From Escherichia coli (GTDB taxonomy: Bacteria; Pseudomonadota; Gammaproteobacteria; Enterobacterales; Enterobacteriaceae), in the NCBI RefSeq assembly GCF_030384885.1, contig NZ_CP128613.1: a stretch of DNA of 64,000 nucleotides; one strand, written 5' to 3'. This document shows positions 1 to 23,903 of this stretch, in pieces. A program made the translations under genes and the position numbers. The notes beneath the pieces are model-generated. The model did no database searches. It saw only the letters and a list, made by a program, of their open reading frames with translations, and was not told the origin of the DNA. How positions within the stretch are numbered: the stretch's first letter is position 1; every line of letters starts with the position of its first letter.

Positions 1-111
1 CACTTCAAAGTAGCGAAAATAGTTACCGTGCCAGGCCACGCCCATCATATCGACGTCGTGAAATGGAATGATCAGCTCGACTTCAGCGGTAAATCGGGGA
101 TCGTTAAGCAC
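1..111 (-). CDS. hotdog-fold acyl-CoA/acyl-ACP thioesterase, N-terminal fragment (gene runs off window start)
   Basis: Reverse complement of 1-111 reads VLNDPRFTAEVELIIPFHDVDMMGVAWHGNYFRYFEV from a GTG at 109-111, immediately after the stop of the upstream gene; the ...HDVD..GVAWHGNYF pattern is typical of 4HBT/YbgC-type thioesterases. Start codon uncertain. Confidence 0.5.
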   Translation of the reverse strand, partial: MLNDPRFTAEVELIIPFHDVDMMGVAWHGNYFRYFEV

Positions 112-114
112 CCT

Positions 115-1791
115 TTACTCCTTGTCCTGGACTTCCGGCAGTTGCCAGAAATCGAAAAAATTAAACCAGTCGAGGGGCGACTGGAGCGCGTGATGTTCCA
201 GACGCGCGGCGTAATGATCGATAGCGTTTTGCAGCGCCTGCTGGCGTTCGCCACGCGGCAACAGCAGCGGGTCGGCAAAGGTTTCGCAGTGAATATGCAG
301 CTTGCCGTGCTGGCGCAGGGCGAAAATCAGATTCACCGGGCAGCGCAAAATAGAGGCGAGAATAAACGGCCCCTGTGGGAAGGGCGCAGGCTGGCCCATA
401 AACGGACTCCAGCAGACGCGCCAGTCGCCGCCGCGTTGCGGGTTGATGGCGATGCGGTCAGCAACAATCGCCACCCATTCGCCGTTATCCAGCTTCTCTT
501 TTAGCAGGATGGCGGTGTCCGGGCCGATATCCGTCACCGGGAGCAGGTTGATGCCTGCCTGCGGGGCCATCTCCTGCATTATCTGTTTAAAACGTTGGGC
601 GTTTTCGCTAAACACCAGCGCGTTAATGGTTTTGTAGCCCTGAATTTTTGCCAGCGCCCGGCACACTTCCACATCGCCAAGATGCGAGGCCAGCAGCAAT
701 TTGCCGCGCGGATCGCTGACGTTAAGTGCCGCTTCTGCGCCTGGTGCAAACAGCACATCACGCCCGAGTTGCAGCTCGCCGCGCCAACTGGCGATTTTGT
801 CGAGCATGGCGTTGCCGAAACGTAGAAAGTGCTGATAGCTGTTGAGTTTTGCTGCCTGTGGTTGATGCTGGCGCACACGGGCGAGCCAGTCTTGCGACGC
901 TTTGCGCGCCCGGCTGGCGGTGAGCCAGTAGACGCCCACCACCGGGTAAAGCAGCGCGGTAAACGCCGTTCTTCCCAGCAGGCGCCAGACCAGCAGCATC
1001 AGGCGCATTCCCCATAATCCTTTCACTTCGCTCTGCCGCGCCCAGTGGCTGGAAGAGTGGCGCATCAGCAGCGAAGGAATACGCGGCAACATGCCGAAAA
1101 ACAGGCGCGTGTGCATGAGCGAGATGCGGACGTTATCTTTCAGGGCATCAAAGTGCGAAAGCCCGTCCAGCGGATAGGTGACGCGAGTCGGCACGAAATA
1201 GCTGGTGTTTCCCTGCCAGTAGAGGCGCACCATCACTTCGGTGTCGAAATCCATCCGCTTGCCGATGGTGGCGTGTTTTGCCAGTTGCAGCGTTGGCGCA
1301 ACCGGATAAACGCGAAAGCCGCACATGCTGTCTTTCAGTTGCAGGGAGAGCGTTTCGATCCACACCCAGACGTGGGTGACCCAGCGCCCGTACAGCCGTG
1401 AGCGGGGGATGGAGTCATCGTAAATTGGCTGGCCGGAGATCAGTGCCGCAGGGTGTTGTTCAGCGAGTGCCAGCAGTTTGGGGATATCTTCAATCGCGTG
1501 CTGACCGTCGGCATCCACCTGTACCGCATGGCTGAACCCCGCGTCTGCCGCTGCCTGTAAGCCGCGCATTACCGCCGCGCCTTTGCCTGCGTTTTCTGCC
1601 AGGCGAATTAATGTCACGCCAGGCTGTTCGGCAACCAGATTATCCAGTTGCTGTTGCGTGGCGGCATCGCTGCCGTCATCCACCACAATACAGGGCAGAT
1701 TAAATGGCTTAAGACGCGCCAGCACGCCCGGCATCATTGCGCCGTGGTTGTAGCAGGGGATCAACACGCAGGGAGAAAAGTTTACCGACAT
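115..1791 (-). CDS. bifunctional family-2 glycosyltransferase / LpxL-like lipid acyltransferase (ApeJ-like)
   Basis: 558-aa ORF; N-terminus has GT-A signatures (LIPCYNH, VVDDGSDA, VDADGQH); C-terminal half resembles lauroyl/myristoyl (HtrB/LpxL-family) acyltransferases. Family assignment by pattern recognition, not search. Confidence 0.8.
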   Translation of the reverse strand: MSVNFSPCVLIPCYNHGAMMPGVLARLKPFNLPCIVVDDGSDAATQQQLDNLVAEQPGVTLIRLAENAGKGAAVMRGLQAAADAGFSHAVQVDADGQHAIEDIPKLLALAEQHPAALISGQPIYDDSIPRSRLYGRWVTHVWVWIETLSLQLKDSMCGFRVYPVAPTLQLAKHATIGKRMDFDTEVMVRLYWQGNTSYFVPTRVTYPLDGLSHFDALKDNVRISLMHTRLFFGMLPRIPSLLMRHSSSHWARQSEVKGLWGMRLMLLVWRLLGRTAFTALLYPVVGVYWLTASRARKASQDWLARVRQHQPQAAKLNSYQHFLRFGNAMLDKIASWRGELQLGRDVLFAPGAEAALNVSDPRGKLLLASHLGDVEVCRALAKIQGYKTINALVFSENAQRFKQIMQEMAPQAGINLLPVTDIGPDTAILLKEKLDNGEWVAIVADRIAINPQRGGDWRVCWSPFMGQPAPFPQGPFILASILRCPVNLIFALRQHGKLHIHCETFADPLLLPRGERQQALQNAIDHYAARLEHHALQSPLDWFNFFDFWQLPEVQDKE

Positions 1792-2135
1792 AGGCGGATC
1801 TTCCCGCTACTGGCGGTGTGGCGGGCGTCACCGTCGTGACGCTGATAACTAAAGCTCAGAATCTGGCGTTCTTCCTGCCAGCTAAGCGTGAGTGTGACGC
1901 GGTTATCCGGCAGCAATGGAGCCTGGAATTTGATGTTCTGAATGGAGTGAAAACGCCAACCGGGCGCGAGCAGGGCAAGCGCGTAACTCATCGCCCAGTC
2001 GATTTGTGCCACGCCGGGGAGTAATGGTTGTACGGCAAAATGACCGCGAAACCAGAACAGATCTGCCCTGAGATGCAAAACAATCTCAAGGTGATTCACT
2101 TGTGCCTGATGGCGCTCGATTTCATGGGGCTTCAT
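1782..2135 (-). CDS. FabA/FabZ-like hotdog 3-hydroxyacyl-ACP dehydratase
   Basis: Motif FRGHFAVQPLLPGVAQIDWAMS resembles the FabZ motif F.GHFP..P.MPGV; start placed at the ATG (2133-2135) preceded by AGGAG rather than the track's upstream ATG at 2165; overlaps the upstream gene's stop by 14 nt. Confidence 0.75.
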   Translation of the reverse strand: MKPHEIERHQAQVNHLEIVLHLRADLFWFRGHFAVQPLLPGVAQIDWAMSYALALLAPGWRFHSIQNIKFQAPLLPDNRVTLTLSWQEERQILSFSYQRHDGDARHTASSGKIRLCR

Positions 2136-3483
2136 GAAATAACTCCTGTAATTGCGCATAGACACGCTTGTTCATACTGTTTACTGGCATTTCATCAATA
2201 ACGCGCCAGTAACGCGGAATAGCAACTGGCTCCAGCGTCGGGCGCAGTAATCGCCGCCAGGCCATTTCCTGGCTGTGCCCGCCGCCGTTTTGCCATTGCA
2301 GGCGAGCTTCGTCATCCAGCACCAGCAAAACGCCAATACTCTGACGCCCGCCGCGCGTAACGGGAACTGCCGCCGCCTCGTGAATACCGTCCAGCGCCAG
2401 CAGACGTTGTTCTACTTCCTGGAGTGAAATGCGTTTTTCTTCAATCTTAACGATGCGTCCGCGACGCCCCATCAGATGGAACTGGCCGTCTTCGCTAAAC
2501 TGCAAGATATCGTCGAGTAACAGGCCGCTATCTTCCTCCATCAGAGGTGAAAAGAGACGAAAGGCATCATCTTCGGCCTGGAACTGCATACCTGGAAAGG
2601 GCCGCCAGCGGCGTTGCTCTTGTTCGCGGTAACGCCAGGCGATGACGCCGGTTTCCGTGCTGCCGTAGATTTCATCAGGCCAGACGCGCAGCCAGCTCGC
2701 GGTGTGTTGTACGTCCTGCCACGGTAGTTCACCGCCAGCGGACAGAAGCACCTGAACGGGGGGCGGGGATAGCTGAGCATCCAGACGCTTCAAAAATGCC
2801 GGGCTGCTGATGAAGATATAGCGATGCTGATGACTCAACGCGGCAAACTGTTCGACATACCAGAGCATGGCGGCATGGAGCGGTAATCCCAGCGCCATGG
2901 GCAGGAAAACGCGAAAAGTCAGGCCGTACAAATGCTGCGGCAATACGGAACCGATGACACGACATCCGGCAAGACGTGCGCCTAATCGTTCAGCCAGCAG
3001 TTCTGCTTCACGGTCCAACAAACGAACAGGTTTAATCACCCGCTTCGGCTGCCCTGTGGAACCAGAGGTAAACAGCTCGATATAAGCGTCTGGCGCTATA
3101 GCGGCAAAGGTGAATGATTGTGTCGCGACTTGTGGGGAGCTTGCTACCAACTGCAATGAACCTTGGCAGTTAAGTTCGCTGTCGCTAAGCACACCATCGA
3201 ACAGTTCACGTTGCTCGTTAAGCTGGATGACGCGGTTATGCCCCGGAAGCACCGGTGTTTTTCCGGCGTGTAGCGTGGCGAGCAGGGCAACGATAAACAG
3301 ATAGCAGTCCTCAAAGCACAGCGCCCAGCGTTCACCTGGTTGTTGCTGTAAACGGCAGATAAGTTGCGAGACATCGTGACGCAAATCGCCCAGCGTCCAG
3401 GTGCTTTCGTCCAGCCACGCAATGGGCGTGTCATCAGAGCGTGGCGCAGTCAGCCAGCGTGCAAGCGGTAAGGTCTGCTTCAT
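2122..3483 (-). CDS. AMP-dependent synthetase/ligase (acyl-ACP/acyl-CoA synthetase-like)
   Basis: TSGSTGQPK AMP-binding motif; start placed at the ATG that overlaps the upstream TGA as ATGA (3480-3483); the track ORF extends to 3522. Confidence 0.8.
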   Translation of the reverse strand: MKQTLPLARWLTAPRSDDTPIAWLDESTWTLGDLRHDVSQLICRLQQQPGERWALCFEDCYLFIVALLATLHAGKTPVLPGHNRVIQLNEQRELFDGVLSDSELNCQGSLQLVASSPQVATQSFTFAAIAPDAYIELFTSGSTGQPKRVIKPVRLLDREAELLAERLGARLAGCRVIGSVLPQHLYGLTFRVFLPMALGLPLHAAMLWYVEQFAALSHQHRYIFISSPAFLKRLDAQLSPPPVQVLLSAGGELPWQDVQHTASWLRVWPDEIYGSTETGVIAWRYREQEQRRWRPFPGMQFQAEDDAFRLFSPLMEEDSGLLLDDILQFSEDGQFHLMGRRGRIVKIEEKRISLQEVEQRLLALDGIHEAAAVPVTRGGRQSIGVLLVLDDEARLQWQNGGGHSQEMAWRRLLRPTLEPVAIPRYWRVIDEMPVNSMNKRVYAQLQELFHEAP

Positions 3484-4061
3484 GAGCGATCTCTTTTCAT
3501 CACCTGACGGCGCACCAGCCATTCACCAGCCATTAACGTCCCCATCAACAAATAAGCAATCATGCCGTTCCAGGCAGTCCATAACGACATATCGCCATGC
3601 AGCGCGGTAAAGAGGGCAATTCCGCCGTTGATGATGAAAAAGCCGCACCAGATTTGCGTGACGTGGCGGGTATAGCGCACGCCCTTTTCCGGGAGGTCTG
3701 GCTCCTGCAAACGCGCCAGCCGCTCAACAATTGGCATTGCCGACCACAGCGAACCGCCAAAAACCGCCAGCATTACCGCGTTAACCACTACCGGGTAAAA
3801 CAGCAGTAGCTGGTGCGTTTTCAACAGAAAGCTGGCAACACACAAGGCGATACCCACAACAGCGACGATTTGTGTGACGGCTTGTAGCGGCCCGGCCTGG
3901 CAACGAGTCTGGCGCAGGCGCAATAAAAGCAGCAGCGCCATCAGCGGCAACAGCCAGTGCAGGCCGTTATGTGCCAAACCAAGCCAAATCACAAACGGCC
4001 AGGCGAGCAGCAATAATCCAGTCAGCAGTTTAATAATCGGTAGCGAGCGAATGCCCGACAT
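3480..4061 (-). CDS. integral membrane protein of the lipid-biosynthesis cluster
   Basis: 193-aa ORF, several hydrophobic segments, co-directional and translationally coupled within the cluster. Confidence 0.7.
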   Translation of the reverse strand: MSGIRSLPIIKLLTGLLLLAWPFVIWLGLAHNGLHWLLPLMALLLLLRLRQTRCQAGPLQAVTQIVAVVGIALCVASFLLKTHQLLLFYPVVVNAVMLAVFGGSLWSAMPIVERLARLQEPDLPEKGVRYTRHVTQIWCGFFIINGGIALFTALHGDMSLWTAWNGMIAYLLMGTLMAGEWLVRRQVMKRDRS

Positions 4062-4065
4062 CAGA

Positions 4066-4317
4066 TCAGGCTTCTTGTAGCAGGCGTTCTACGGCCTCTA
4101 CGACATCCCGGACTGTACGCACTGCTTTAAACTCTTCCGGCTTGATTTTCTTACCGGTTTTCTTTTGCAGATGCACAATCATGTCAACGGCGTCGATGCT
4201 GTCCAGTTCCAGATCTTCGTACAGGCGCGCTTCAGGTTTGATGTCCTGCGGTTCGATTTCAAACAGCTTAACCAGCAGAGCTGAGACTTCCTGATAGACG
4301 GTTTGTTGTTCTGTCAT
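4066..4317 (-). CDS. acyl carrier protein
   Basis: 83 aa, acidic, LDSIDAVDMI phosphopantetheine-attachment motif. Confidence 0.85.
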   Translation of the reverse strand: MTEQQTVYQEVSALLVKLFEIEPQDIKPEARLYEDLELDSIDAVDMIVHLQKKTGKKIKPEEFKAVRTVRDVVEAVERLLQEA

Positions 4318-4328
4318 GATGGCTTTCC

Positions 4329-4586
4329 TCAGGCACGTTGTGCAGCAATAAAAGAGGCCAGAGTGGCGACAGAGAAAAAGTGCTGACGCATCTCTTCACT
4401 TTCCGCAGAAAGTACAACGCCATATTCATTTTTCACTGCCAGCCCCAGTTCCAGGGCATCGATAGAGTCCAGCCCTAAACCGTCGCCAAACAGTGGCGCG
4501 TCGGTATCGATATCATCAGGAGCCAACTCGTCCAGATTGAGGGTGCTGATGATGAGATTTTTAATTTCCAGATAAAGCGCTTGCAT
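4329..4586 (-). CDS. acyl carrier protein
   Basis: 85 aa, GLDSIDALELG phosphopantetheine-attachment motif; 5' end overlaps the upstream acyltransferase gene, so the exact start is uncertain. Confidence 0.8.
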   Translation of the reverse strand: MQALYLEIKNLIISTLNLDELAPDDIDTDAPLFGDGLGLDSIDALELGLAVKNEYGVVLSAESEEMRQHFFSVATLASFIAAQRA

Positions 4587-5382
4587 TATTTATTCCTGAG
4601 AGAGGTAAACAACCTTGTTGTAATTGAAGCAAAAGATGCCGGTTTAACTGCCTTGCTGCTAGCGCCGGTTCTTGTGAAGTTGCATCGTAAAATTTATTGA
4701 TTTCTACCCGCCCACGGACTTCAACCGTAAAAAGTGGCCTGGCAGGTGGAACGTCATACCATTTACTTTGTTTATCCAGCAGATGCTCGCTACAGCCGAT
4801 CGTCACGATGCGTAAATCGCTGGCGCAGCGCACGGCAATATTCGCCGCACCGCGCTGTAACGTCATTTTTTCACCAGGCTTCGTCCGCGTGCCTTCGGGG
4901 AAAATCAAGATAGTGTCGCCCTGTGCCAGTCGCTGTTGGCAACGGGGTAAGAGAGTTTCAGCTTCGCTGTTGATTAAATAATCTGCCGCCCGCACGACGC
5001 CGCCAAGAAAAGGATTTTTTAACAGCGCGCTTTTTACCAGGCAGTCAGTTTCTGGCATGACTGATGCCAGTAGTACGTAATCGATAAGCGTGGGATGATT
5101 AGCTACGACGAGGCAACCGCGTTCCTGACGTAAAATTTCAGCCCCATCAATACGATAATCCAGCACGCCAAGCCCTTTTGCGACTGTTAAAAACAGACGA
5201 AAACTGGCGGCAATGCTGCGACGCGCCAAACGACGGCGGCGGGAAGTGTTCCACACCAAAACTAACAGTACGTTAAACCACACCACAGAGAGTAGTAGTC
5301 CGCCGAGGCCAAACAGGGCAAAACACAACCCGGTCATAACCAGTCGCCATGTCCATTCCAGGCGTGACATCAGCTTACTCAT
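4561..5382 (-). CDS. PlsC-family (lysophospholipid/1-acylglycerol-3-phosphate-like) acyltransferase
   Basis: 273 aa; N-terminal transmembrane segment, NH-x4-D motif (ANHPTLID) and FPEGTRT motif. Confidence 0.8.
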   Translation of the reverse strand: MSKLMSRLEWTWRLVMTGLCFALFGLGGLLLSVVWFNVLLVLVWNTSRRRRLARRSIAASFRLFLTVAKGLGVLDYRIDGAEILRQERGCLVVANHPTLIDYVLLASVMPETDCLVKSALLKNPFLGGVVRAADYLINSEAETLLPRCQQRLAQGDTILIFPEGTRTKPGEKMTLQRGAANIAVRCASDLRIVTIGCSEHLLDKQSKWYDVPPARPLFTVEVRGRVEINKFYDATSQEPALAARQLNRHLLLQLQQGCLPLSGINNASALSGN

Positions 5383-6125
5383 CTACGGCTCCAGCGCCAC
5401 TGTACGCGCTCACCAGGAAGTGAAAAAGCATCTGAATTTTGTAAATAGTGCTGTAAAAACAACATGCTTTGCGGCAGTGTTGTTTCATTGCCCGCAATGG
5501 CTGGCTGTGTTTCACATTGCCACTCATCGCCAGCTTCAATCACCAGCGCAACAGCATATGGCCAGGTCGGCATTTCTGCTGGGAGCTGCGGATGATAGAA
5601 CTCAGGTAGAAAGCCATCAAAATCGACCATCAACACACGCTGGTATCCCGCTTGTAGCAGGCTAAGCACTTCACTCAAACCTTGCTGGAAAGTGTCGCGA
5701 CCAGCCGAAAGCGATGACGAAACGATCGGCTGTTTGGCCGCAATGGTCAGGTTACCCACGGAAGAGTTGTGTACTGAAAGTGCAAAGTCGGTGGGGGAAA
5801 GCGCCTGTTCAGTTGCCAGTGCATGAACAATGCGGTAATTGCGCTCCAGTTCGCCATGACGACTGGTATACAAAACGGCGTCTGGCTGATGGCGGCGTAG
5901 CATTGCCAGGCCGCATTCAACAGCCAGTTTGCTGCCTGAACTGAGGCGGCGGGCGGTCATCATTGGCAGTTCACTTAATTTTGCCAACGGCGCGGCAGGG
6001 TCAATCGCCCACGGCTGGCGCGACCATGCTTGCCATTGCTGCGCTTCGCTAAGTCCAGGCGCCAGTGCCTGCCAGTCGGTAATATTTAATGTAAATTTCA
6101 TCAACGCGCGCCCGCGGTAAACCAA
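5379..6125 (-). CDS. hypothetical protein, possibly beta-ketoacyl-synthase N-terminal-like domain (chain-length-factor-like)
   Basis: 248-aa ORF with ATGA overlap to the downstream acyltransferase; function inferred only from position in the cluster and vague resemblance; needs an HMM search. Confidence 0.6.
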   Translation of the reverse strand: MVYRGRALMKFTLNITDWQALAPGLSEAQQWQAWSRQPWAIDPAAPLAKLSELPMMTARRLSSGSKLAVECGLAMLRRHQPDAVLYTSRHGELERNYRIVHALATEQALSPTDFALSVHNSSVGNLTIAAKQPIVSSSLSAGRDTFQQGLSEVLSLLQAGYQRVLMVDFDGFLPEFYHPQLPAEMPTWPYAVALVIEAGDEWQCETQPAIAGNETTLPQSMLFLQHYLQNSDAFSLPGERVQWRWSRR

Positions 6126-6141
6126 AATTATTAAGTGACGA

Positions 6142-7209
6142 TTATTTCTTTTGGCATATCAAAAGAGTATGCCCAACGCCTAAATTATCGTGGCGCTCTG
6201 CTACCTGAAATCCTGCTTTATTCAGATAGTCGTAAAATTTCTCTGCACTATAGAAACGGCTGTTACCGTTTGCCATGCAGGTGAAATAAAGTGAGGACGC
6301 GTTCAGGCTAAATGATGCTGCTTCAAACCGCTGCGCATCCCAGAACAACTCCATGATGCAAACTTTTGCGCCAGGCTTCATTACGCTGGCGATTTTGCTG
6401 AGTATGCTAATTATTTGTTCGGGTGAAAAACAGTCTAAAAATTGGCTCATCCACCAGATATCAGCCTCGCCCGGTAATGGGGCATCGCTTAGCATATCCA
6501 CCGCATGGAAATCTATGCGATCAGAAAAACCTGCATTCGCGATATTTTCTTTCGCTAGTACGATTTGTTGTGGCAGATCTAATAACGTCACGGCGATGTT
6601 TTCATTGTATTTGCAGCAACGCAAAGCCCACTTACCCGTATTGCCGCCTACATCGTACAATGTTGTGGGGTTGTTGGCGAATACATAAGGCAGTGCGGCG
6701 TTAAATGCGCCATCTGAATAGTAATGATCAAACGCAAACCAGCTTTCACGAGCGGCATCTGGTAATTGTGAAAGTGCGGGATATATCGTCGACCAGTCGC
6801 CAAATACTTTTAACCCGGACGGTTTTCCTTCATTGAGTGAATCGGCGAGGAAGAAGAGCCCCTGATAGCAGACATCCTGGGTGAAATCCATATTCACGCG
6901 AGTCATAGTGTCATGCAGGAGGTAATGACCGATTTTCGCCAGGTAATACATTCCCTCTTTACAGGTAATAATTCGCCCGCTTAAGCCCATATCTAACAGA
7001 ACGCTGGCCGCATATTCGTTGATATGGCTATGTTCGGTGATATCAGCCAGCGTTGCGCCATGTTTGCCTTGCCGATCCAGATATGAAAGTACACCCGCAT
7101 TACGTAGGCAGAGAGCTGTTTGAAAAAGCATGGGGGCAAAGGCAATGCGTTGAGCTTCGGTAATCGCATCCAGTGCGCTAAGAGAATCCTGTTCGTACAT
7201 GTTGGGCAC
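6142..7209 (-). CDS. class I SAM-dependent O-methyltransferase
   Basis: 355 aa; VGGNTGKWA glycine-rich SAM-binding motif followed by LLDLP...DM..D, typical of O-methyltransferase family 2. Confidence 0.85.
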   Translation of the reverse strand: MPNMYEQDSLSALDAITEAQRIAFAPMLFQTALCLRNAGVLSYLDRQGKHGATLADITEHSHINEYAASVLLDMGLSGRIITCKEGMYYLAKIGHYLLHDTMTRVNMDFTQDVCYQGLFFLADSLNEGKPSGLKVFGDWSTIYPALSQLPDAARESWFAFDHYYSDGAFNAALPYVFANNPTTLYDVGGNTGKWALRCCKYNENIAVTLLDLPQQIVLAKENIANAGFSDRIDFHAVDMLSDAPLPGEADIWWMSQFLDCFSPEQIISILSKIASVMKPGAKVCIMELFWDAQRFEAASFSLNASSLYFTCMANGNSRFYSAEKFYDYLNKAGFQVAERHDNLGVGHTLLICQKK

Positions 7210-7268
7210 AACCTGTTAAGAGGGAATTAAATTATTATCGGACCGAAGCGGCCCGACTTTAGGGGAAA

Positions 7269-7658
7269 TTACAAATCTGCGCCAGCCGACAAATTCAGTT
7301 GAATATCTTTGTCGAGATTGCGGACCCAGCGATTATAGTTTTTATGAATTTGTCCGCCTGATGCTTGCAGGTTCTGACTATTTTCATAATTGATATCGTA
7401 GCTGGATGCCGTGTAGTTAATGCGAATTTCGGCTGAATGATCGCGTGACTGTTGACGTGCTTTAATTACGCCTTGTCCGGCTTCGGACATAATCCATTTG
7501 CGTTCAACGCCAGCTTTCAGAATCGCTTTTTTCACTTGTTCCGGGGTATGACCAGCGCTGACGGTTGAGTGAACCTGATCAATTGGCGCAGTACGCGCGC
7601 AACCCGCTAAAGCACCCACAACAGCAATAGCCGCAAACCATTTCATGTAATGTCTCAT
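7269..7658 (-). CDS. small lipoprotein, first gene of the cluster in this window
   Basis: 129 aa; signal peptide with lipobox LAGC (MKWFAAIAVVGALAGC); exact start (7658 vs 7646) uncertain. Confidence 0.65.
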   Translation of the reverse strand: MRHYMKWFAAIAVVGALAGCARTAPIDQVHSTVSAGHTPEQVKKAILKAGVERKWIMSEAGQGVIKARQQSRDHSAEIRINYTASSYDINYENSQNLQASGGQIHKNYNRWVRNLDKDIQLNLSAGADL

Positions 7659-8037
7659 TAGAATCCCATTAAAGTATTGTTTTTACGAGTAAAGCAAGAT
7701 TTAACTGTAATTGCTGGCATCACTATTCTTTATTTAGCGAAAAAATTACTTGTGAGATAAGTCAGTAAGTGCACATCAGAGTAAAAATTTCTGAAATGAC
7801 TAAATTACTGCCAGCGGGGACCAACTATAAGTGAGTGAGAAAAATGAGGCAATAAAAATAACAGATTGTTATCAGTGCATTCTTTGAGAGGGATTTAATC
7901 GCTATTCGGCGTTTATATATATTTGACTTAAGGAATGGTTTTTATAAATTAATTGTCTGAATAATGTTTCTTCATTTCCTCAAATCAAATGGCCACTGTT
8001 AGATAAACGGTGGCCATTGCCTGCTCAGGAGGTGCTA

Positions 8038-9087
8038 TTAACCTGGTAACCGACTTTTCGGTCTGCCCGGCCCCAGTAAGATCGCCAGTTTGCTACCGCC
8101 TTTGGTGGTTTCCATCCAGATTTTACACACGCTGGTTAATGGTACCGAAAGTAGCATTCCAACCGGGCCGAGCAGCCATCCCCAAATCAACAATGAAAGA
8201 AATACCACCATGGTGGACATCCCCAGGCGATGGCCCATCATCCGCGGTTCTAAAATATTGCCGATGACCATATGGACAACTAAAAACAATGCGCCGACCA
8301 GAATACATTCGTAAACGCCATTAAACAGCAGCACCTGAATCATTGGCGGTACGGCGGAAATTACCGCGCCGATATTGGGGACGTAGTTAAGCAAAAACGC
8401 CAGTACCGCCCACATCAGCGCAAACTGTACACCCATAAGTTCCAGCCCCAGCCAGACGATAATGCCTGTCCATAAACTTAGCAGTGTCTTCAATGCAAGA
8501 TAGTGCGAAACACCTTTTAAGGCGCGGTGTAGTCCGGCGATGTGAATCTGTGGATTATTCAACGCAAAACGCATTTTGTAAGGGACGTGGCGCACTTCAA
8601 ACAGCATGAAAACTACGGTCATCACCAGCAAAAGCACGCTCGCCATTGCCCCGGAAAGCCCGGTCATTAGCGCCGTGGTGAAGGTAACCACTTTTTCCGA
8701 GTCCATCCGCTGCAGCATTCGCTCCGGCGACATATGCAAATTAAGAAAAGGCAACATCTCCTGCAATTTAAAAAGCTTGCGCGTCAGCTCCTTATTAAAC
8801 TTCGGCAGCATAGAGATAAATTCGTTAAACGAAGCTGCCAGTACACCGACCAGTGCGGTAAGTGCGATCAGCATCACCACCACCACAATCGTAATTGCAA
8901 CGGGGCGTTGTACTCCGCGACGAATAAACCAGGTGACGAGCGGGTTGAGGACGATGGCAAAAAACAGCGCCAGTAACAGTTGCACAATGATATCTGCCGC
9001 TGCGTGAATGCCCGCGAGGATTACTACCAGCGAGGCCAGTTTAAGCAGAATGTGCATGCCCGTTTTATCGGGTTGAGGGGTTTCCAT
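8038..9087 (-). CDS. yhhT: AI-2E/PerM-family membrane transporter YhhT
   Basis: Protein from METPQPDKTGMHILLK recognised as E. coli YhhT (349 aa); start at the ATG preceded by AGGAAG rather than the track's longer ORF. Confidence 0.93.
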   Translation of the reverse strand: METPQPDKTGMHILLKLASLVVILAGIHAAADIIVQLLLALFFAIVLNPLVTWFIRRGVQRPVAITIVVVVMLIALTALVGVLAASFNEFISMLPKFNKELTRKLFKLQEMLPFLNLHMSPERMLQRMDSEKVVTFTTALMTGLSGAMASVLLLVMTVVFMLFEVRHVPYKMRFALNNPQIHIAGLHRALKGVSHYLALKTLLSLWTGIIVWLGLELMGVQFALMWAVLAFLLNYVPNIGAVISAVPPMIQVLLFNGVYECILVGALFLVVHMVIGNILEPRMMGHRLGMSTMVVFLSLLIWGWLLGPVGMLLSVPLTSVCKIWMETTKGGSKLAILLGPGRPKSRLPG

Positions 9088-9218
9088 TGGGGCTTCCTTG
9101 TGACTTTTTGTATTAAGTGTAGCGGGAGTCACGCCAGCAATATTCTGATTCTTACTGCTGATTTTCACGTCAGCACGTGGTAAAAATGAAACACTGTTGT
9201 AAAAATGTGGTGATCCTC

Positions 9219-10436
9219 ATGCCCGAACCCGTAGCCGAACCCGCGCTAAACGGATTGCGCCTGAATTTGCGCATTGTCTCCATTGTCATGTTTAACTTCG
9301 CCAGCTACCTCACCATCGGGTTGCCGCTCGCTGTATTACCGGGCTATGTCCATGATGTGATGGGCTTTAGCGCTTTCTGGGCAGGATTGGTTATCAGCCT
9401 GCAATATTTCGCCACCTTGCTGAGCCGCCCTCATGCCGGACGTTACGCCGATTTGCTGGGACCCAAAAAGATTGTCGTCTTCGGTTTATGCGGCTGCTTT
9501 TTAAGCGGTTTGGGGTATCTGACGGCAGGATTAACCGCCAGTCTGCCCGTCATCAGCCTGTTATTACTTTGCCTGGGACGTGTGATTCTCGGCATTGGGC
9601 AAAGTTTTGCCGGAACAGGGTCGACACTGTGGGGCGTTGGCGTGGTTGGTTCGCTGCATATCGGGCGGGTGATTTCGTGGAACGGCATTGTCACTTACGG
9701 GGCGATGGCGATGGGTGCGCCGTTAGGTGTCGTGTTTTATCACTGGGGCGGCTTGCAGGCGTTAGCGTTAATCATTATGGGTGTGGCGCTGGTGGCCATT
9801 TTGTTAGCGATCCCGCGTCCGACGGTAAAAGCCAGTAAAGGCAAACCACTGCCGTTTCGCGCGGTGCTTGGGCGCGTCTGGTTATACGGCATGGCGCTGG
9901 CGTTGGCTTCTGCCGGATTTGGCGTTATCGCCACCTTTATCACATTGTTTTATGACGCTAAAGGCTGGGACGGTGCGGCTTTTGCGCTGACGCTGTTTAG
10001 CTGTGCATTTGTTGGAACGCGATTGTTATTCCCTAACGGCATAAATCGTATCGGCGGCTTAAATGTGGCGATGATTTGCTTTAGCGTTGAGATAATCGGC
10101 CTGCTACTGGTTGGCGTGGCGACTATGCCGTGGATGGCGAAAATCGGCGTCTTACTCGCGGGGGCGGGGTTTTCGCTGGTGTTCCCGGCATTGGGCGTAG
10201 TGGCGGTAAAAGCAGTGCCGCAGCAGAATCAGGGGGCGGCGCTGGCAACTTACACCGTATTTATGGATTTATCGCTTGGCGTGACCGGACCACTGGCTGG
10301 GCTGGTGATGAGTTGGGCGGGCGTCCCGGTGATTTATCTGGCGGCGGCGGGACTGGTCGCAATCGCGTTATTACTGACGTGGCGATTAAAAAAACGGCCT
10401 CCGGTGGAAGTACCTGAGGCCATCTCATCATCTTAA
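9219..10436 (+). CDS. yhhS: MFS transporter YhhS
   Basis: Recognised as E. coli YhhS from MPEPVAEPALNGLRLNL (405 aa); the track ORF starts 14 codons upstream. Confidence 0.93.
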   Translation: MPEPVAEPALNGLRLNLRIVSIVMFNFASYLTIGLPLAVLPGYVHDVMGFSAFWAGLVISLQYFATLLSRPHAGRYADLLGPKKIVVFGLCGCFLSGLGYLTAGLTASLPVISLLLLCLGRVILGIGQSFAGTGSTLWGVGVVGSLHIGRVISWNGIVTYGAMAMGAPLGVVFYHWGGLQALALIIMGVALVAILLAIPRPTVKASKGKPLPFRAVLGRVWLYGMALALASAGFGVIATFITLFYDAKGWDGAAFALTLFSCAFVGTRLLFPNGINRIGGLNVAMICFSVEIIGLLLVGVATMPWMAKIGVLLAGAGFSLVFPALGVVAVKAVPQQNQGAALATYTVFMDLSLGVTGPLAGLVMSWAGVPVIYLAAAGLVAIALLLTWRLKKRPPVEVPEAISSS

Positions 10437-10439
10437 AAC

Positions 10440-10997
10440 TTACTGAATAACCAGCGTATTAATGATGTTTTCTGCGGTGGTCTGTGCTTTTTGCTGATCG
10501 TCAGCTGGCAGCGTAATTTGCATGGTCAGCAGTTGATTACCCACGTTACCCAGAATAACGGAAGAGTACGCCGTCTGGCCTTTCGCGGAGATAATGCTGT
10601 CTAACTGCTGCATTTTGTGACCTTTCAGCTCAATGGCTTTGTTGGTCACTACTTGCAGCTGTGGATCGCGGCTACGTTGCTGATCTTCCAGGCGCTTCGC
10701 CAGCACCGCCAGATCTTCTTTCGGATCATCGCCCATGATGACGATGACTGCTTTTTGCCCGGTGGCGTCGGACCAGACATGCATGTTATTAGCCTGCGTT
10801 CCCAGCTTACCGCTCTGGTCGGTCATATCCGCTGGCAGCGAGAAACTTAACTTGCCATCAAGCAGGTTGACGGGATTCCCGGTAGCGTTACTTTCCGCGA
10901 CCGAACCCTGCGCCGTAGCGTTAGTGTCTTTATCATCACAGGCCGCAAGCCCCATAACCAGCAGGCCAATTCCGACATATTTAACCAGATTGCGCAT
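10440..10997 (-). CDS. dcrB: periplasmic lipoprotein DcrB
   Basis: Recognised from [24 protein letters not shown] (185 aa); lipobox LAAC. Confidence 0.92.
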
Positions 10998-11069
10998 TGA
11001 CTTCTTCCTTTCGATAAACGGCCATAACGGCTCATTCATCCATCTTATCACAACTCTGATAACGAACCT

Positions 11070-11735
11070 TTAACTCGCCTGCAAAGCGTTGATTTCGGAT
11101 TTATCTGCCAGTCTTTTCAACAGCATATTGAGTAATACGCCATACATTGGCAGGAAGAAAACGATACTGATTAACACTTTGAAACAGTAATCGACCAGCG
11201 CGATTTCCATCCAGTGTTCAGCCATAAAGGCATCTGGGCTGCGCCAGAAGGCAATGAAGAAGAAGGCCAGCGTGTCGCTGACGTTACCAAACAGGGTGGA
11301 AGCCGTCGGTGCCAGCCACCAGCGACGACTCTGACGCAGGCGGTTAAAAACGTGCACGTCGAGGATTTGCCCCAGCGCGTAGGCCATGAAACTGGCGGTG
11401 GCGATACGGGCGACAAACAGGTTGAAGTGGGCGAGCGCGCCGAATCCCTGCCAGGAACCCATATAGAACAGCGACGAGATGACGTAGGAGATCAGTAACG
11501 CCGGGATCATCACCGCAAAGATGATACGACGGGCCAGCGGTGCGCCAAAAATACGCACAGTCAGGTCGGTAGCAAGGAAAATAAACGGAAAGCTAAACGC
11601 GCCCCAGGTGGTATGGAAACCAAAAATGGATACGGGAAGCTGAACCAGATAGTTACTGGAGGTGATCACCAACAGATGAAATAACGATAACCAGAACAAC
11701 GCTTTATAGCGTTGAGTTTGCGAGAAAACGTTCAT
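11070..11735 (-). CDS. yhhQ: queuosine-precursor transporter YhhQ
   Basis: 221-aa membrane protein recognised as E. coli YhhQ. Confidence 0.93.
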   Translation of the reverse strand: MNVFSQTQRYKALFWLSLFHLLVITSSNYLVQLPVSIFGFHTTWGAFSFPFIFLATDLTVRIFGAPLARRIIFAVMIPALLISYVISSLFYMGSWQGFGALAHFNLFVARIATASFMAYALGQILDVHVFNRLRQSRRWWLAPTASTLFGNVSDTLAFFFIAFWRSPDAFMAEHWMEIALVDYCFKVLISIVFFLPMYGVLLNMLLKRLADKSEINALQAS

Positions 11736-11954
11736 ATTGTACCTTTTTGATTAACCATTGGGGTGAGGGAACCCAATACGTACGACACGTCTGTTACCTT
11801 AACATAATAACGTGCTGACCCTTTTTTCGAGCCGCCGCATGATACTGCTTTACGTTGACAATGCAATGGTTAATTTTCGCGCAATCGTTAACCTGGTTTG
11901 CTTACGGACTCACAGGGCGTAAACTAGCGCCGTTTTTTATGTGATGAGAAGAAA

Positions 11955-12200
11955 ATGACCGATCTCTTTTCCAGCCCTGACCACACACTCGACGCACTTG
12001 GCCTGCGCTGCCCGGAACCCGTGATGATGGTGCGCAAAACTGTGCGCAATATGCAACCTGGCGAAACGTTGCTGATTATTGCTGATGATCCGGCGACGAC
12101 ACGCGATATTCCTGGGTTTTGTACCTTTATGGAACACGAACTGGTTGCTAAAGAAACGGATGGACTGCCTTATCGTTATTTGATTCGTAAATCGGGGTAA
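11955..12200 (+). CDS. tusA: sulfur carrier protein TusA
   Basis: 81 aa with the CPEP active-site motif ([11 protein letters not shown]); recognised as E. coli TusA. Confidence 0.96.
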
Positions 12201-12254
12201 GGTGGATCAGGCTAGCGGACCGATCGCGCTCAATTTTGCGGCTTGCAACCGGTT

Positions 12255-12391
12255 TGTAGGACGGATAAAACGTTCAAGCTGCATCTGGCGATACGGTGCG
12301 CAATGCCTGATGCGACGCTGTCGCGTCTTATCATGCCTACGAGTTCAATGCCCTGTGTAGGCCAGATAAGGCGTTTACGCCGCATCCGGCA
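12255..12391. repeat. BIME / REP element cluster
   Basis: Copies of the REP palindrome (e.g. tgtaggccagataaggcgtttacgccgcatccggcac and gcctgatgcgacgctgtcgcgtcttatcatgcctac) in the tusA-zntA convergent intergenic region. Confidence 0.8.
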
Positions 12392-12414
12392 CGCAAACGT
12401 AATGGAATGCACAA

Positions 12415-12723
12415 ATGGATTATTTAATTCCAGTTTGTCTGGTATTGCTGGGATTGCTCGCGATCTTCACCCCCAATTGGCTGATCCCTGTTTTTATCGT
12501 CGTGGGGGGATGGCTGGGGGTACTTGCCTGGGGTTGGCTCTGGCTAATGATTTTTTTACCTTTACTTAACGGTGTCGGGCTTGCTTATGCCCTGTGGTTG
12601 ATGTTCAAAAGGCCATCCATAGCATCCCGCCTGGTTGCTGCATGCTGTGTTATCTCCGTCATTCTGATGTTAGCGCTTTATTATGCTTTCCTGACTATGC
12701 CGCCGTTCCCGCCTCAGCACTAA
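12415..12723 (+). CDS. hypothetical small hydrophobic protein (unverified ORF)
   Basis: 102-aa ORF directly after the BIME; Trp/Leu-rich with 2-3 predicted transmembrane segments (GGWLGVLAWGWLWLMIFLPLL); weak Shine-Dalgarno; could be a chance ORF. Confidence 0.3.
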   Translation: MDYLIPVCLVLLGLLAIFTPNWLIPVFIVVGGWLGVLAWGWLWLMIFLPLLNGVGLAYALWLMFKRPSIASRLVAACCVISVILMLALYYAFLTMPPFPPQH

Positions 12724-12755
12724 GCCTGATAGCCAGAGGCTATCAGGCAACACTT

Positions 12756-14954
12756 TTACTTCCTGCGCAACAATCTTAACGCATTCGCTGTCACCAGCAC
12801 CGTCGCACCCGTATCTGCCAGCACCGCCAGCCATAGTCCGGTCATCCCTAACAGCGTTGTGACGAGGAAGATCCCTTTCAGCCCCAGCGCAATGGTGATG
12901 TTCTGGCGGATATTGGCGTGAGTGGCGCGTGCCAGTTCAATCATCTGCACCAGGCCGCGCAGGTGGTTATGGGTTAATGCAGCGTCGGCGGTTTCCAGCG
13001 CCACATCTGTGCCACTGCCCATTGCAATCCCTATGGCGGCAGCTTTCATGGCGGGCGCGTCGTTAATACCGTCACCGACCATCGCCAGAGGCGCATGTTG
13101 ATTCAGCTCGGTCACCGCTTTGACTTTATCTTCTGGTAATAGGCCCGCTTTAAATTTCAGCCCCAGTTCACCGGCGATTGCCGCCGCTGCGTGTGGATTA
13201 TCGCCAGTGAGGATCACTCCTTTGACGCCCAGGGCGCTCAGTTCGCTGATGGCAGTTGCGGCGTCGGCGCGCAGGGTATCCTGCAATGCAATGACACCCA
13301 GCACTTCATCGTTACGCACCACCAGTACTACCGTTTGCCCGGCGCTTTCCAGTTCGTTAATTAAACCAGCAAATGCAACAGCCGGATGTTTTCCGGCAGC
13401 GCATATCAACACGCGCTCACCGTTAATCAGTGCTTCAATACCAGACCCGACCAGCGCCCGCTGTGATTCGGCGGCGGGAATGGCGAGTTCAGCAACCTGT
13501 GCTTCGCGTACGATGGCTTGCGCCAGTGGATGCGTCGCGCCTTGCTCGACCGCCGCTGCCAGTGTCAGCAGTTCAGATTCACTAATACCCGTTGCCGGAT
13601 GAATCGCGGTAACGCGCGGTTTACCGACGGTCAGCGTGCCGGTTTTATCAAACGCCACCTGGGTAACACGACCTAGTTGTTCCAGCGCCGCACCGCCTTT
13701 AATCAACGCCCCATGACGCGCTGCTGCCGCCAGCCCGGAGGTGATCGCCGCAGGTGTTGAGATCACCAGCGCACACGGGCAGCCAATCAGCAGCAGCGTC
13801 AGCCCTTTATAAATCCACTCCTGCCAGCTTGCGGCAAACAGCAGCGGTGGCACCAGCGTCACCAGCAGGGCGACGGCCATAATCGCTGGCGTGTAAATAC
13901 GGCTGAAACGGTCGATAAACCGCTCAATGGGCGCGCGGCGCTCTTCGGCTTCTTCGATCAGTTTCAGAATCCGGTCAATGGCGCTGGCACCCGGTTCTGA
14001 CAGCACTTCCAGCGTTACCAGACGGTCTACGCTGGTGGCGCCTGCAGGAACTTTATCACCCGTCGCGCGCTCCACCGGAATGGATTCGCCGGTCAGGGCG
14101 CTTTCATCAAAACTGGCAAAGGGCGAGAGCAGTTTACCGTCGGCAGGTAAACGCCCACCTGCCGCAACTTCGATAACATCGCCCGGACGCAGGCTGTTAA
14201 TTGCTACCTCTTCACGCTTGCCATTACGCAGGCGCGTGGCGGTTTCCGGTTTCAGCGCCATTAACGCGCTGACCCCTTGACGCGCGCGGCTGGCGGCCCA
14301 GCCTTCCAGTCGTTCACCAATCAAAAACAGCAGCAACACCATCGCAGCTTCAGCCGTTGCGCCAATAAACAGCGCACCAATAGCGGCTACGCTCATTAAG
14401 GTTTCAATAGCGAAGTAGCTGCCGGATTTGATCAGCCGTAATGCCTGACGAGCAATCGGGTACAGCCCAACCAGCGTGGTCGCGATAAACGCCAGTTGAC
14501 CGAACGGATGATTAAACTGCTCCAGACCCCAGCTGATTGCCATCAACACGATTAGCGTAATCAGCGGCAGATTCTCTTTCAGGCGTGATGCTTGCGGTTC
14601 TACGGCTGCCTGTTCATCGCGCAGGGAATAGCCCGCTTTTTGCACCGCAGATTCAACTTGTGCACGGATGTCATTGTCGGCATCAACCACCAGTTTTTCG
14701 GTGGCGAACAGCACCTGCACCTGATTCACGCCTGCAAGCTGGCGCACGGCATTTTCTACCTTGCGCGCGCAGGCGGCGCAGTCCATGCCGCTGACTTTCC
14801 AGCTATAGCGGGTGCCGGAGACGTTTTCAGAGAGCGTTGGCGTGCTGGAACATGCGCCGTCGCAGCAACAGTCGTTGACGTTCTGTACCGTGGTTAGCGG
14901 TTTGAACGCAGAAAATTGAGGGGCTTTCTTGCCGTGATTGTCAGGAGTCGACAT
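12756..14954 (-). CDS. zntA: Zn(II)/Cd(II)/Pb(II)-translocating P-type ATPase ZntA
   Basis: 732 aa; GMDCAACARKVE metal-binding motif, CPC, DKTGT; recognised as E. coli ZntA. Confidence 0.97.
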   Translation of the reverse strand: MSTPDNHGKKAPQFSAFKPLTTVQNVNDCCCDGACSSTPTLSENVSGTRYSWKVSGMDCAACARKVENAVRQLAGVNQVQVLFATEKLVVDADNDIRAQVESAVQKAGYSLRDEQAAVEPQASRLKENLPLITLIVLMAISWGLEQFNHPFGQLAFIATTLVGLYPIARQALRLIKSGSYFAIETLMSVAAIGALFIGATAEAAMVLLLFLIGERLEGWAASRARQGVSALMALKPETATRLRNGKREEVAINSLRPGDVIEVAAGGRLPADGKLLSPFASFDESALTGESIPVERATGDKVPAGATSVDRLVTLEVLSEPGASAIDRILKLIEEAEERRAPIERFIDRFSRIYTPAIMAVALLVTLVPPLLFAASWQEWIYKGLTLLLIGCPCALVISTPAAITSGLAAAARHGALIKGGAALEQLGRVTQVAFDKTGTLTVGKPRVTAIHPATGISESELLTLAAAVEQGATHPLAQAIVREAQVAELAIPAAESQRALVGSGIEALINGERVLICAAGKHPAVAFAGLINELESAGQTVVLVVRNDEVLGVIALQDTLRADAATAISELSALGVKGVILTGDNPHAAAAIAGELGLKFKAGLLPEDKVKAVTELNQHAPLAMVGDGINDAPAMKAAAIGIAMGSGTDVALETADAALTHNHLRGLVQMIELARATHANIRQNITIALGLKGIFLVTTLLGMTGLWLAVLADTGATVLVTANALRLLRRK

Positions 14955-23480: not shown

Positions 23481-23903
23481 GGGGAACCCGTGTAAATCAC
23501 AAAAGTGGAACCAGTGTAGCGAAATAATTTAATCGGAGGCTTTCTCTTTTTTATTTCTTTTGGCAGGTGATTAATTTTTTAACAGCAATAATTACAAATT
23601 AAAAACATTAGAGAATGAAAAATGTCCAGCATAATCCCCTGAATGGTAGTGAATTATTCCGCCCTTTGTACCGTTATTTTATGCTGACAACGGCGCTTTT
23701 TTCTGTTTATCTATCAATAAATTCAGAATATTATCTGTTCTTAATCGACTGAAAAATAGGGATTTTAATCGCTATTATCACAAAACACTGCGCTAAACCC
23801 TTAATCAGACAGGCAAAAACAGTGCAGTATAAAAAAAGTACAGTCTGATTTGTTAACACATAAAAACAAAGCAACACAACATCACGAATGGGGATTTTTG
23901 ACT

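Follow-up and report, generated by a model that had tools for sequence, protein, structure and literature searches.

The AT-rich gap between yhhT and the aryl-polyene cluster of Escherichia coli: candidate terminator and promoter at the edge of the K-12 rearrangement

The window analyzed here is a stretch of 64,000 nucleotides from Escherichia coli strain 2013C-4282, and its positions 7659–8037 correspond exactly to the 379-bp intergenic gap between yhhT and an apeA homologue. Both genes, as well as the cluster that apeA opens, are encoded on the minus strand, and the gap is bounded by the yhhT stop codon TAA (8038–8040, minus strand) and by the first ATG of apeA (7658, minus strand). In the PGAP annotation yhhT (8038–9087, minus strand) codes for an AI-2E family transporter, whose Pfam domain AI-2E_transport is matched with E = 7e-85. 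The apeA homologue (7269–7658, minus strand) encodes a 129-aa lipoprotein with the lipobox LAGC, and is the first gene of an aryl-polyene (APE) cluster. It is followed by genes for a methyltransferase, which has a Pfam match, a chain-length factor, an acyltransferase and two acyl carrier proteins, and by the remaining cluster genes; in the cluster PGAP recognizes the ApeI and ApeP dehydratases, a LolA-like protein, an MMPL transporter, a DUF3261 protein, ketosynthases and a ketoreductase. The cluster measures 15,026 bp and ends 1 bp before acpT, and nikA comes after acpT.

Gene by gene, this cluster matches Table 1 of PMC8253772, and the segment is the known APE cluster of O157:H7, designated O-island 138 (OI-138) or S-loop 225 (Z4850–Z4866, ECs4325–4341). 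In O157:H7 it occupies the same locus, with the same gene order ending at acpT, and the gap between yhhT and the lipoprotein gene is 97.1% identical. Strain 2013C-4282 differs in carrying a divergent allele (3–4% different), with CCA-GGT-TAA at the yhhT end and an A replacing a G in the ribosome-binding site. The stretch 7000–8600 of the window is itself unusually divergent, since only one complete E. coli genome, that of 2013C-4282 itself, is at least 99% identical to it over 1.6 kb, the other cluster-bearing strains being ~96% and K-12 yhhT ~95% identical. The carrier proteins of the OI-138 cluster, described as fatty acid synthase (FAS)-like or aryl-polyene, are substrates of AcpT, according to the account that PMC8253772 gives of De Lay & Cronan 2006. 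The same content and order are found in the APE(Ec) cluster of CFT073 (c1186–c1204, apeA–apeR), which also opens with the lipoprotein ApeA and the methyltransferase ApeB, and whose genes are all co-oriented and thought to be polycistronic (PMC8253772). However, the DNA upstream of the CFT073 cluster has no similarity to the gap, which blastn detects only in 569 genomes where it is linked to yhhT.

The GC content of the gap is 0.338, versus 0.524 for the window and 0.528 for the mean coding sequence, and just 0.3% of all windows of 379 bp have so low a value. A preliminary description of this DNA had called the region AT-rich compared with the flanking coding DNA, and the gap indeed lies clearly below the local average. 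It ranks third in AT-richness among the 25 intergenic gaps of at least 50 bp in the first 50 kb, whose median GC is ~0.44. The core panM–livK gap (23481–23903) has a GC of 0.336 and includes the 379-bp window with the lowest GC of the entire 64,000 nucleotides (0.317, from 23491); therefore, the composition of the yhhT–apeA gap is at the extreme of normal regulatory DNA, not outside it. Only the 379-bp gap is AT-rich, the GC content of the cluster being 55.2% as against 52.4% for the flanking 56 kb. Relatives of ApeA are encoded in 80 loci that were fetched for synteny, and in 73 of them the region upstream of apeA is AT-rich (mean GC 0.35), irrespective of whether yhhT is adjacent; it is equally AT-rich in the 51 loci with a different neighbor. 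AT-richness thus accompanies the cluster wherever it is located and is not a junction effect. Elsewhere in the window, the tusA–zntA gap (12201–12755) is 555 bp long, versus ~100 bp in K-12. Its extra DNA contains a 102-aa ORF (12415–12723) with no Pfam match, the stretch 12211–12391 is a dispersed repeat found at 6 places per genome in the median and at 18 at most, and the full arrangement occurs in only 264 complete E. coli genomes.

Transcription leaving yhhT would meet a strong hairpin 19 nt past its stop codon. The preliminary description had quoted a hairpin just downstream of this codon, and its sequence is the exact reverse complement of 7991–8015, within a stem-loop that spans 7988–8018 (minus strand). 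This stem-loop, AAUGGCCACCGUU-UAUCU-AACAGUGGCCAUU, has 13-nt arms that are 92% complementary, with one C·A mismatch, and a 5-nt loop; it folds at −16.3 kcal/mol (z = −3.83), better than any of 200 shuffles. The U-rich tail UUUGAUUUG overlaps the last stem bases and extends to ~7981. Stem-loop and tail together (7975–8018, minus strand) most likely constitute the intrinsic terminator of yhhT, as judged from their sequence. They resemble Rho-independent terminators in having a G+C-rich stem-loop right after the stop codon, followed by a U-rich stretch, at a place that is kept in many genera with differing sequences. They depart from them in the mismatched stem, in a U-tract (6 U in 9) that is interrupted by G and A, and in that a consensus terminator scan makes no call at the site.

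Five other E. coli alleles carry the hairpin unchanged. Escherichia sp. E1V33 has G·U in place of one stem pair and C-G in place of the C·A mismatch, so that pairing is kept. Compared with dinucleotide shuffles, the first 100 nt after the yhhT stop fold with z < −2 in 24 of 30 loci (mean z −3.5), whereas two control segments, the following 100 nt and the final 100 nt of the gap, do so in 2 and 1 of the 30, with a mean z of ~0 (Wilcoxon p ~2e-8 or lower). Almost every locus in which yhhT is linked to apeA harbors one or two strong hairpins 1–80 nt after the stop codon, often in tandem, as exemplified by GAAAATAAAAACGCCCATCTGATTGTGGGCGTTTTTATTTTC in Kosakonia and by AGCGCTGCCATATATTATGGCGGCGCT followed by TTTTATTATT in E. 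asburiae. Their stem sequences are unrelated between genera; many are flanked by runs of A and T, and most of those in other genera have 5–7 T in the next 8 nt.

Between the putative terminator and the predicted promoter extends an AT-rich spacer (7871–7974, minus strand), in which no feature is conserved outside Escherichia and which, together with the leader, accumulates most of the E. coli polymorphisms of the gap. It includes an imperfect 15-nt inverted repeat (7921–7935 / 7976–7990). On the plus strand, a promoter-like TTGACT-16-TAAATT (7923–7950) points to the yhhT 3′ end, in antisense orientation, within the part that does not align outside Escherichia. In the cluster-bearing E. coli 23CRST031 (locus L089, 684–968), an IS1A element with a frameshifted transposase lies at the yhhT-proximal end of the gap, ~10 nt from the expected stop position, and replaces the yhhT 3′ end.

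The predicted σ70 promoter of the ape operon (7824–7870, minus strand) is composed of a −35 hexamer TTGCCT (7852–7847), a 17-nt spacer and a −10 hexamer TATAGT (7829–7824), and the A/T-rich stretch GTTATTTTTA precedes its −35. It matches the consensus at 9 of 12 positions and is the sole minus-strand σ70-like site in the gap. The scan found four σ70-like matches in the gap versus 3.0 expected in shuffles, which by itself is no better than chance, and it is therefore the conservation of the site that argues for it. At aligned positions, TTGATA-17-TATACT or the same −35 with TATAGT occurs in eight loci of two other genera, namely Citrobacter youngae, C. gillenii, C. amalonaticus S646, three further Citrobacter, Klebsiella indica and K. 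michiganensis. The hexamers and the upstream ATTATTTT stretch are conserved in these eight loci, while the spacer sequence varies freely. Among E. coli alleles that differ at 4–13 other positions of the gap, 7817–7863 is invariant. The site is thus probably the σ70 promoter of the ape operon (7852–7824, minus strand), from which transcription would start near 7817.

No orthologous promoter was recognized in C. sedlakii, two of the three C. amalonaticus loci, C. koseri, Leclercia or Enterobacter, and in Lelliottia and Huaxiibacter the only matches are different ones (9–10 of 12), ~120 nt from the ATG. As the orthologue goes unrecognized in several genera, the site may not be the only or the universal start. 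A second, proximal ape promoter is plausible on sequence grounds in Citrobacter Cu233 and K. michiganensis, where 9 of 12 positions match near the conserved TAAATAAA block; the corresponding E. coli sequence is a poor match. A literature search found neither a published description of a promoter or terminator at the yhhT–apeA gap nor a mapped start or termination site for this locus.

A transcript starting at this promoter would carry a predicted 5′ leader of ~160 nt (7659–7817, minus strand), the predicted length in Citrobacter and Klebsiella being ~200 nt. This leader appears to be unstructured: its fold is no better than that of shuffles (z −0.64), RNAalifold on eight orthologous leaders gave neither a consensus structure nor covariation, and an Rfam scan of 7000–9300 gave no match at E ≤ 1. 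The small ORFs of the gap have only 20–27 codons and no conservation, and the gap as a whole is barely alignable between genera. Two short elements are nevertheless kept across genera, namely a block at 7725–7744 (TTTTTCGCTAAATAAAGAAT on the minus strand) and the ribosome-binding region TGATAGGGAGTTTTAATG, with the Shine–Dalgarno sequence GGGAT at 7663–7667. The −35, the −10 and the Shine–Dalgarno sequence are all weaker in E. coli than in Citrobacter. In C. amalonaticus S646 (locus L014, ~3700–3900) the predicted leader measures 297 nt, versus 198 nt in the other Citrobacter loci, and includes a GC-rich stretch (GCGCTTGCGCTGGCCCCGAAGGGGCGAGGCCGAG...), perhaps a repetitive extragenic element.

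PGAP places the start of the apeA homologue at the ATG at 7646 (125 aa) instead of 7658. Codon 5, which is ATT in Citrobacter, is ATG in E. coli and creates this alternative start. Homologues across Enterobacterales are mostly 129 aa long and have the N-terminus MKKxxKWF; together with the conserved ribosome-binding site, this shows that the first ATG (7658) is the ancestral start.

The preliminary description had placed this region upstream of the first gene of a segment absent from K-12, and had proposed that the K-12 and cluster-bearing arrangements diverge here. Both statements hold, as the gap opens on apeA and alignment to the K-12 yhhT–acpT DNA locates the breakpoint at its right-hand edge and not elsewhere. 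K-12-type genomes align only from window position 8042/8045 onward. The last yhhT codons are CCA-GGT-TAA in the window, CCG-GGT-TAA in other cluster-bearing E. coli, CCG-GGA-TAA in Escherichia sp. E1V33 and CCG-GGA-TGA in K-12. Since they differ only synonymously, homology ends at or within the stop codon, and all 379 bp, the hairpin included, are absent from K-12. At the other end, immediately before acpT, K-12 retains a remnant of the last cluster gene, which encodes a β-ketoacyl-ACP synthase (KS); this remnant matches the 3′ end of the gene at 19 of 20 bases. The K-12-type yhhT–acpT spacer (locus L002, 3943–3996) is 54 bp long and has no terminator hairpin, its best fold reaching −6.2 kcal/mol; thus, acpT may be transcribed there by read-through from yhhT. 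The ~35-bp filler between yhhT and the KS remnant matches neither the cluster nor the gap significantly, and its gapped alignment to the KS gene end is suggestive but scores no better than shuffles (p = 0.71). The hairpin's 3′ arm (AACAGTGGCC) shares microhomology with the KS gene end (AACGTTGGCC); this was considered as the deletion joint, and rejected because the K-12 sequence upstream of it mismatches the gap.

In complete E. coli genomes this locus exists as two alleles. The gap is present in 569 of them by blastn, always as one copy and with 96.6–100% identity, and the other 4,856 share a single K-12-type yhhT–acpT junction with at least 97.4% identity, which together make up all 5,425 complete genomes with a match. 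Since there are only two alleles and the K-12 junction is everywhere the same one, a single deletion, and not an empty island site, is the most likely origin of the K-12 form.

The synteny outside E. coli bears on the same question. YhhT (81–99% identical) is encoded directly upstream of apeA and on the same strand in 29 of the 80 loci, with yhhS beyond it in most, and the order yhhS–yhhT–AT-rich gap–apeA–methyltransferase recurs in at least 10 genera of Enterobacteriaceae. The yhhT-linked taxa comprise Citrobacter (sedlakii, amalonaticus, youngae, gillenii, koseri and freundii), Klebsiella indica, K. michiganensis, Superficieibacter, Lelliottia, Leclercia, Huaxiibacter, Enterobacter, Kosakonia and Pluralibacter. 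In all 29 loci the yhhT–apeA gap is 265–696 bp long, with a GC content of 0.30–0.43. In Raoultella (L031, L047, L049 and L050) the apeA homologue adjoins yhhS, and no yhhT or methyltransferase match was detected in the locus. In six other loci (L044, L046, L052 and L054–L056) yhhT–apeA is present with no methyltransferase after it. One of these, L052 (CACSKA010000004.1), is titled Chryseobacterium sp. 18061 and has an enterobacterial YhhT (83% identical) beside apeA; this assembly is probably mislabelled or contaminated. Representative genomes of other named Escherichia species were absent from the top hits for ApeA relatives.

The idea that the segment is a foreign island, as the preliminary description pictured it, is not supported. 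No tRNA gene was found within window positions 1–13000, the annotation holds no mobility gene, and the longest word shared by the two junctions, searched for att sites or direct repeats, is 8 nt long and inverted. Considered together with the GC content above that of the core, the KS remnant in K-12 and the synteny in other genera, this indicates that the K-12 state is best read as a deletion. The title of the 2006 study by De Lay and Cronan reportedly agrees with this reading. The sequence comparison therefore makes it most likely that the locus is ancestral in Enterobacteriaceae, the other genera being judged at the yhhT end, and that one deletion allele is now predominant in E. coli. Loss and regain by recombination may have occurred within the genus Escherichia.

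On the observed composition, hairpin, synteny, conserved hexamers and two-allele population structure, we propose, with a probability of about 0.75, that the gap is a native control region between yhhT and apeA, made of a terminator and a promoter in their ancestral arrangement, which was lost in a single old deletion in K-12. According to this model, the stem-loop and its U-rich tail would end transcription of yhhT and shield the downstream operon from read-through. About 135 nt past the hairpin, the σ70 promoter with its A/T-rich upstream stretch would start transcription near 7817, giving a transcript with an unstructured, AT-rich leader of ~160 nt followed by the apeA ribosome-binding site. 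This transcript would probably run on through the 18 same-strand ape genes into acpT. The K-12 deletion would extend from the yhhT stop codon to ~20 bp, possibly ~55 bp, before acpT, and would have taken the terminator, the promoter and the whole cluster.

It could be argued instead that this is the junction of a horizontally acquired island, whose AT-rich promoter is silenced by H-NS like those of xenogeneic islands. AT-rich tracts of such composition (33.8% GC over 379 bp) are commonly bound by H-NS, and the segment is missing from 4,856 of the 5,425 matching complete genomes. Preferential expression at 37 °C and induction by a regulator such as TosR are, moreover, behaviors often seen at H-NS-controlled genes. 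Both have been described for the separate CFT073 APE cluster, which is expressed preferentially at 37 °C (PMC12890032) and induced by the regulator TosR (PMC8253772). The likeness to H-NS-silenced AT-rich promoters, such as LEE1 in EHEC (PMC4764244), consists in the ~34% GC upstream of an accessory operon; here, however, the body of the operon is GC-rich and the locus ancestral, not mobile. The lack of tRNA gene, longer junction repeats and mobility genes, and the cluster remnant kept in K-12, also speak against acquisition, as does finding the same locus and promoter in many genera. The core panM–livK gap of the same window is equally AT-rich, and the high-affinity H-NS motif TCGATAAATT occurs in the gap only as two matches with 2 mismatches, which are uninformative in AT-rich DNA. 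Neither ChIP nor hns-mutant results for the yhhT–apeA locus were found in the literature, where the papers joining aryl polyenes and H-NS were irrelevant, and the supplements of PMC4764244 have no entry for ECs4324–4327 or yhhT. Expression data point in the same direction. In EDL933 the OI-138 genes Z4851–Z4855 give mid-range log2 array signals of 7–10 in stationary phase, which are 2–6 fold higher in an rpoS mutant (PMC2907692); Z4853 and Z4854 rise ~2.2–2.5 fold when host epithelial cells are present (PMC2654852), and in Sakai spinach lysate induces ECs4325–4340 (bioRxiv 10.1101/2020.04.13.038984). Genes that are expressed and inducible on arrays argue against tight silencing, and indicate an operon that is regulated rather than simply silent; the co-regulation of ECs4325–4340 and of Z4851–Z4861 fits one operon. 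We thus consider a silenced island junction unlikely, while binding of H-NS to the gap is in itself plausible.

Two further explanations dispense with either the promoter or the ordinary nature of the gap. If the ape genes had no promoter of their own here, they would depend on read-through from yhhT, with the hairpin acting as an attenuator or stabilizer and not as a terminator. That yhhT and apeA share a strand, that the U-tract is imperfect and that no terminator hairpin separates yhhT from acpT in K-12 would agree with it. Yet three genera conserve the −35 and −10 hexamers 165–210 nt before apeA, in most genera yhhT is followed by strong hairpins with T-runs, frequently as a tandem pair, and the DNA upstream of apeA is equally AT-rich in the 51 loci where yhhT is not the neighbor, all of which makes read-through quite improbable as the source of the ape transcript. 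Still harder to sustain is the notion of an unannotated element within the gap, be it a small RNA, a riboswitch-like leader or a small protein gene. The length of the predicted leader (~160–200 nt) and the short block 7725–7744 conserved across genera could hint at one; against it stand the empty Rfam scan, the unremarkable leader fold with neither consensus structure nor covariation, the short and non-conserved ORFs, and the poor alignability of the gap between genera.

Compatible with a native yhhT–apeA control region, the AT-rich upstream region of apeA, the 160–200 nt leader and the TTAGCTTAAATAAA block might together form a conserved switch, operated either by H-NS/StpA against an anti-silencer or by a novel regulator acting on the block. 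Such a switch would travel with the cluster in Enterobacterales and set aryl-polyene production according to temperature, plant or host cues. This is a speculative extension, to which we give limited credence; if it were true, the weakened −35, −10 and Shine–Dalgarno sequences of E. coli would make the cluster nearly cryptic.

The region is an ordinary terminator–promoter gap; both the gene cluster that it precedes and the K-12 rearrangement whose edge it marks are known, and it is in that respect largely known already. What sequence comparison adds is a breakpoint placed at the stop codon, evidence for an ancestral locus, and a conserved candidate promoter and terminator. These provide concrete candidate sites for the terminator that would insulate yhhT and for the promoter of the O157-type aryl-polyene operon, whose pigment has been linked to protection from oxidative stress and to biofilm formation (PMC8253772); beyond such housekeeping their import is small. 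As an ancestral locus that was most likely lost once in E. coli, O-island 138 counsels caution against treating O-islands as foreign DNA.
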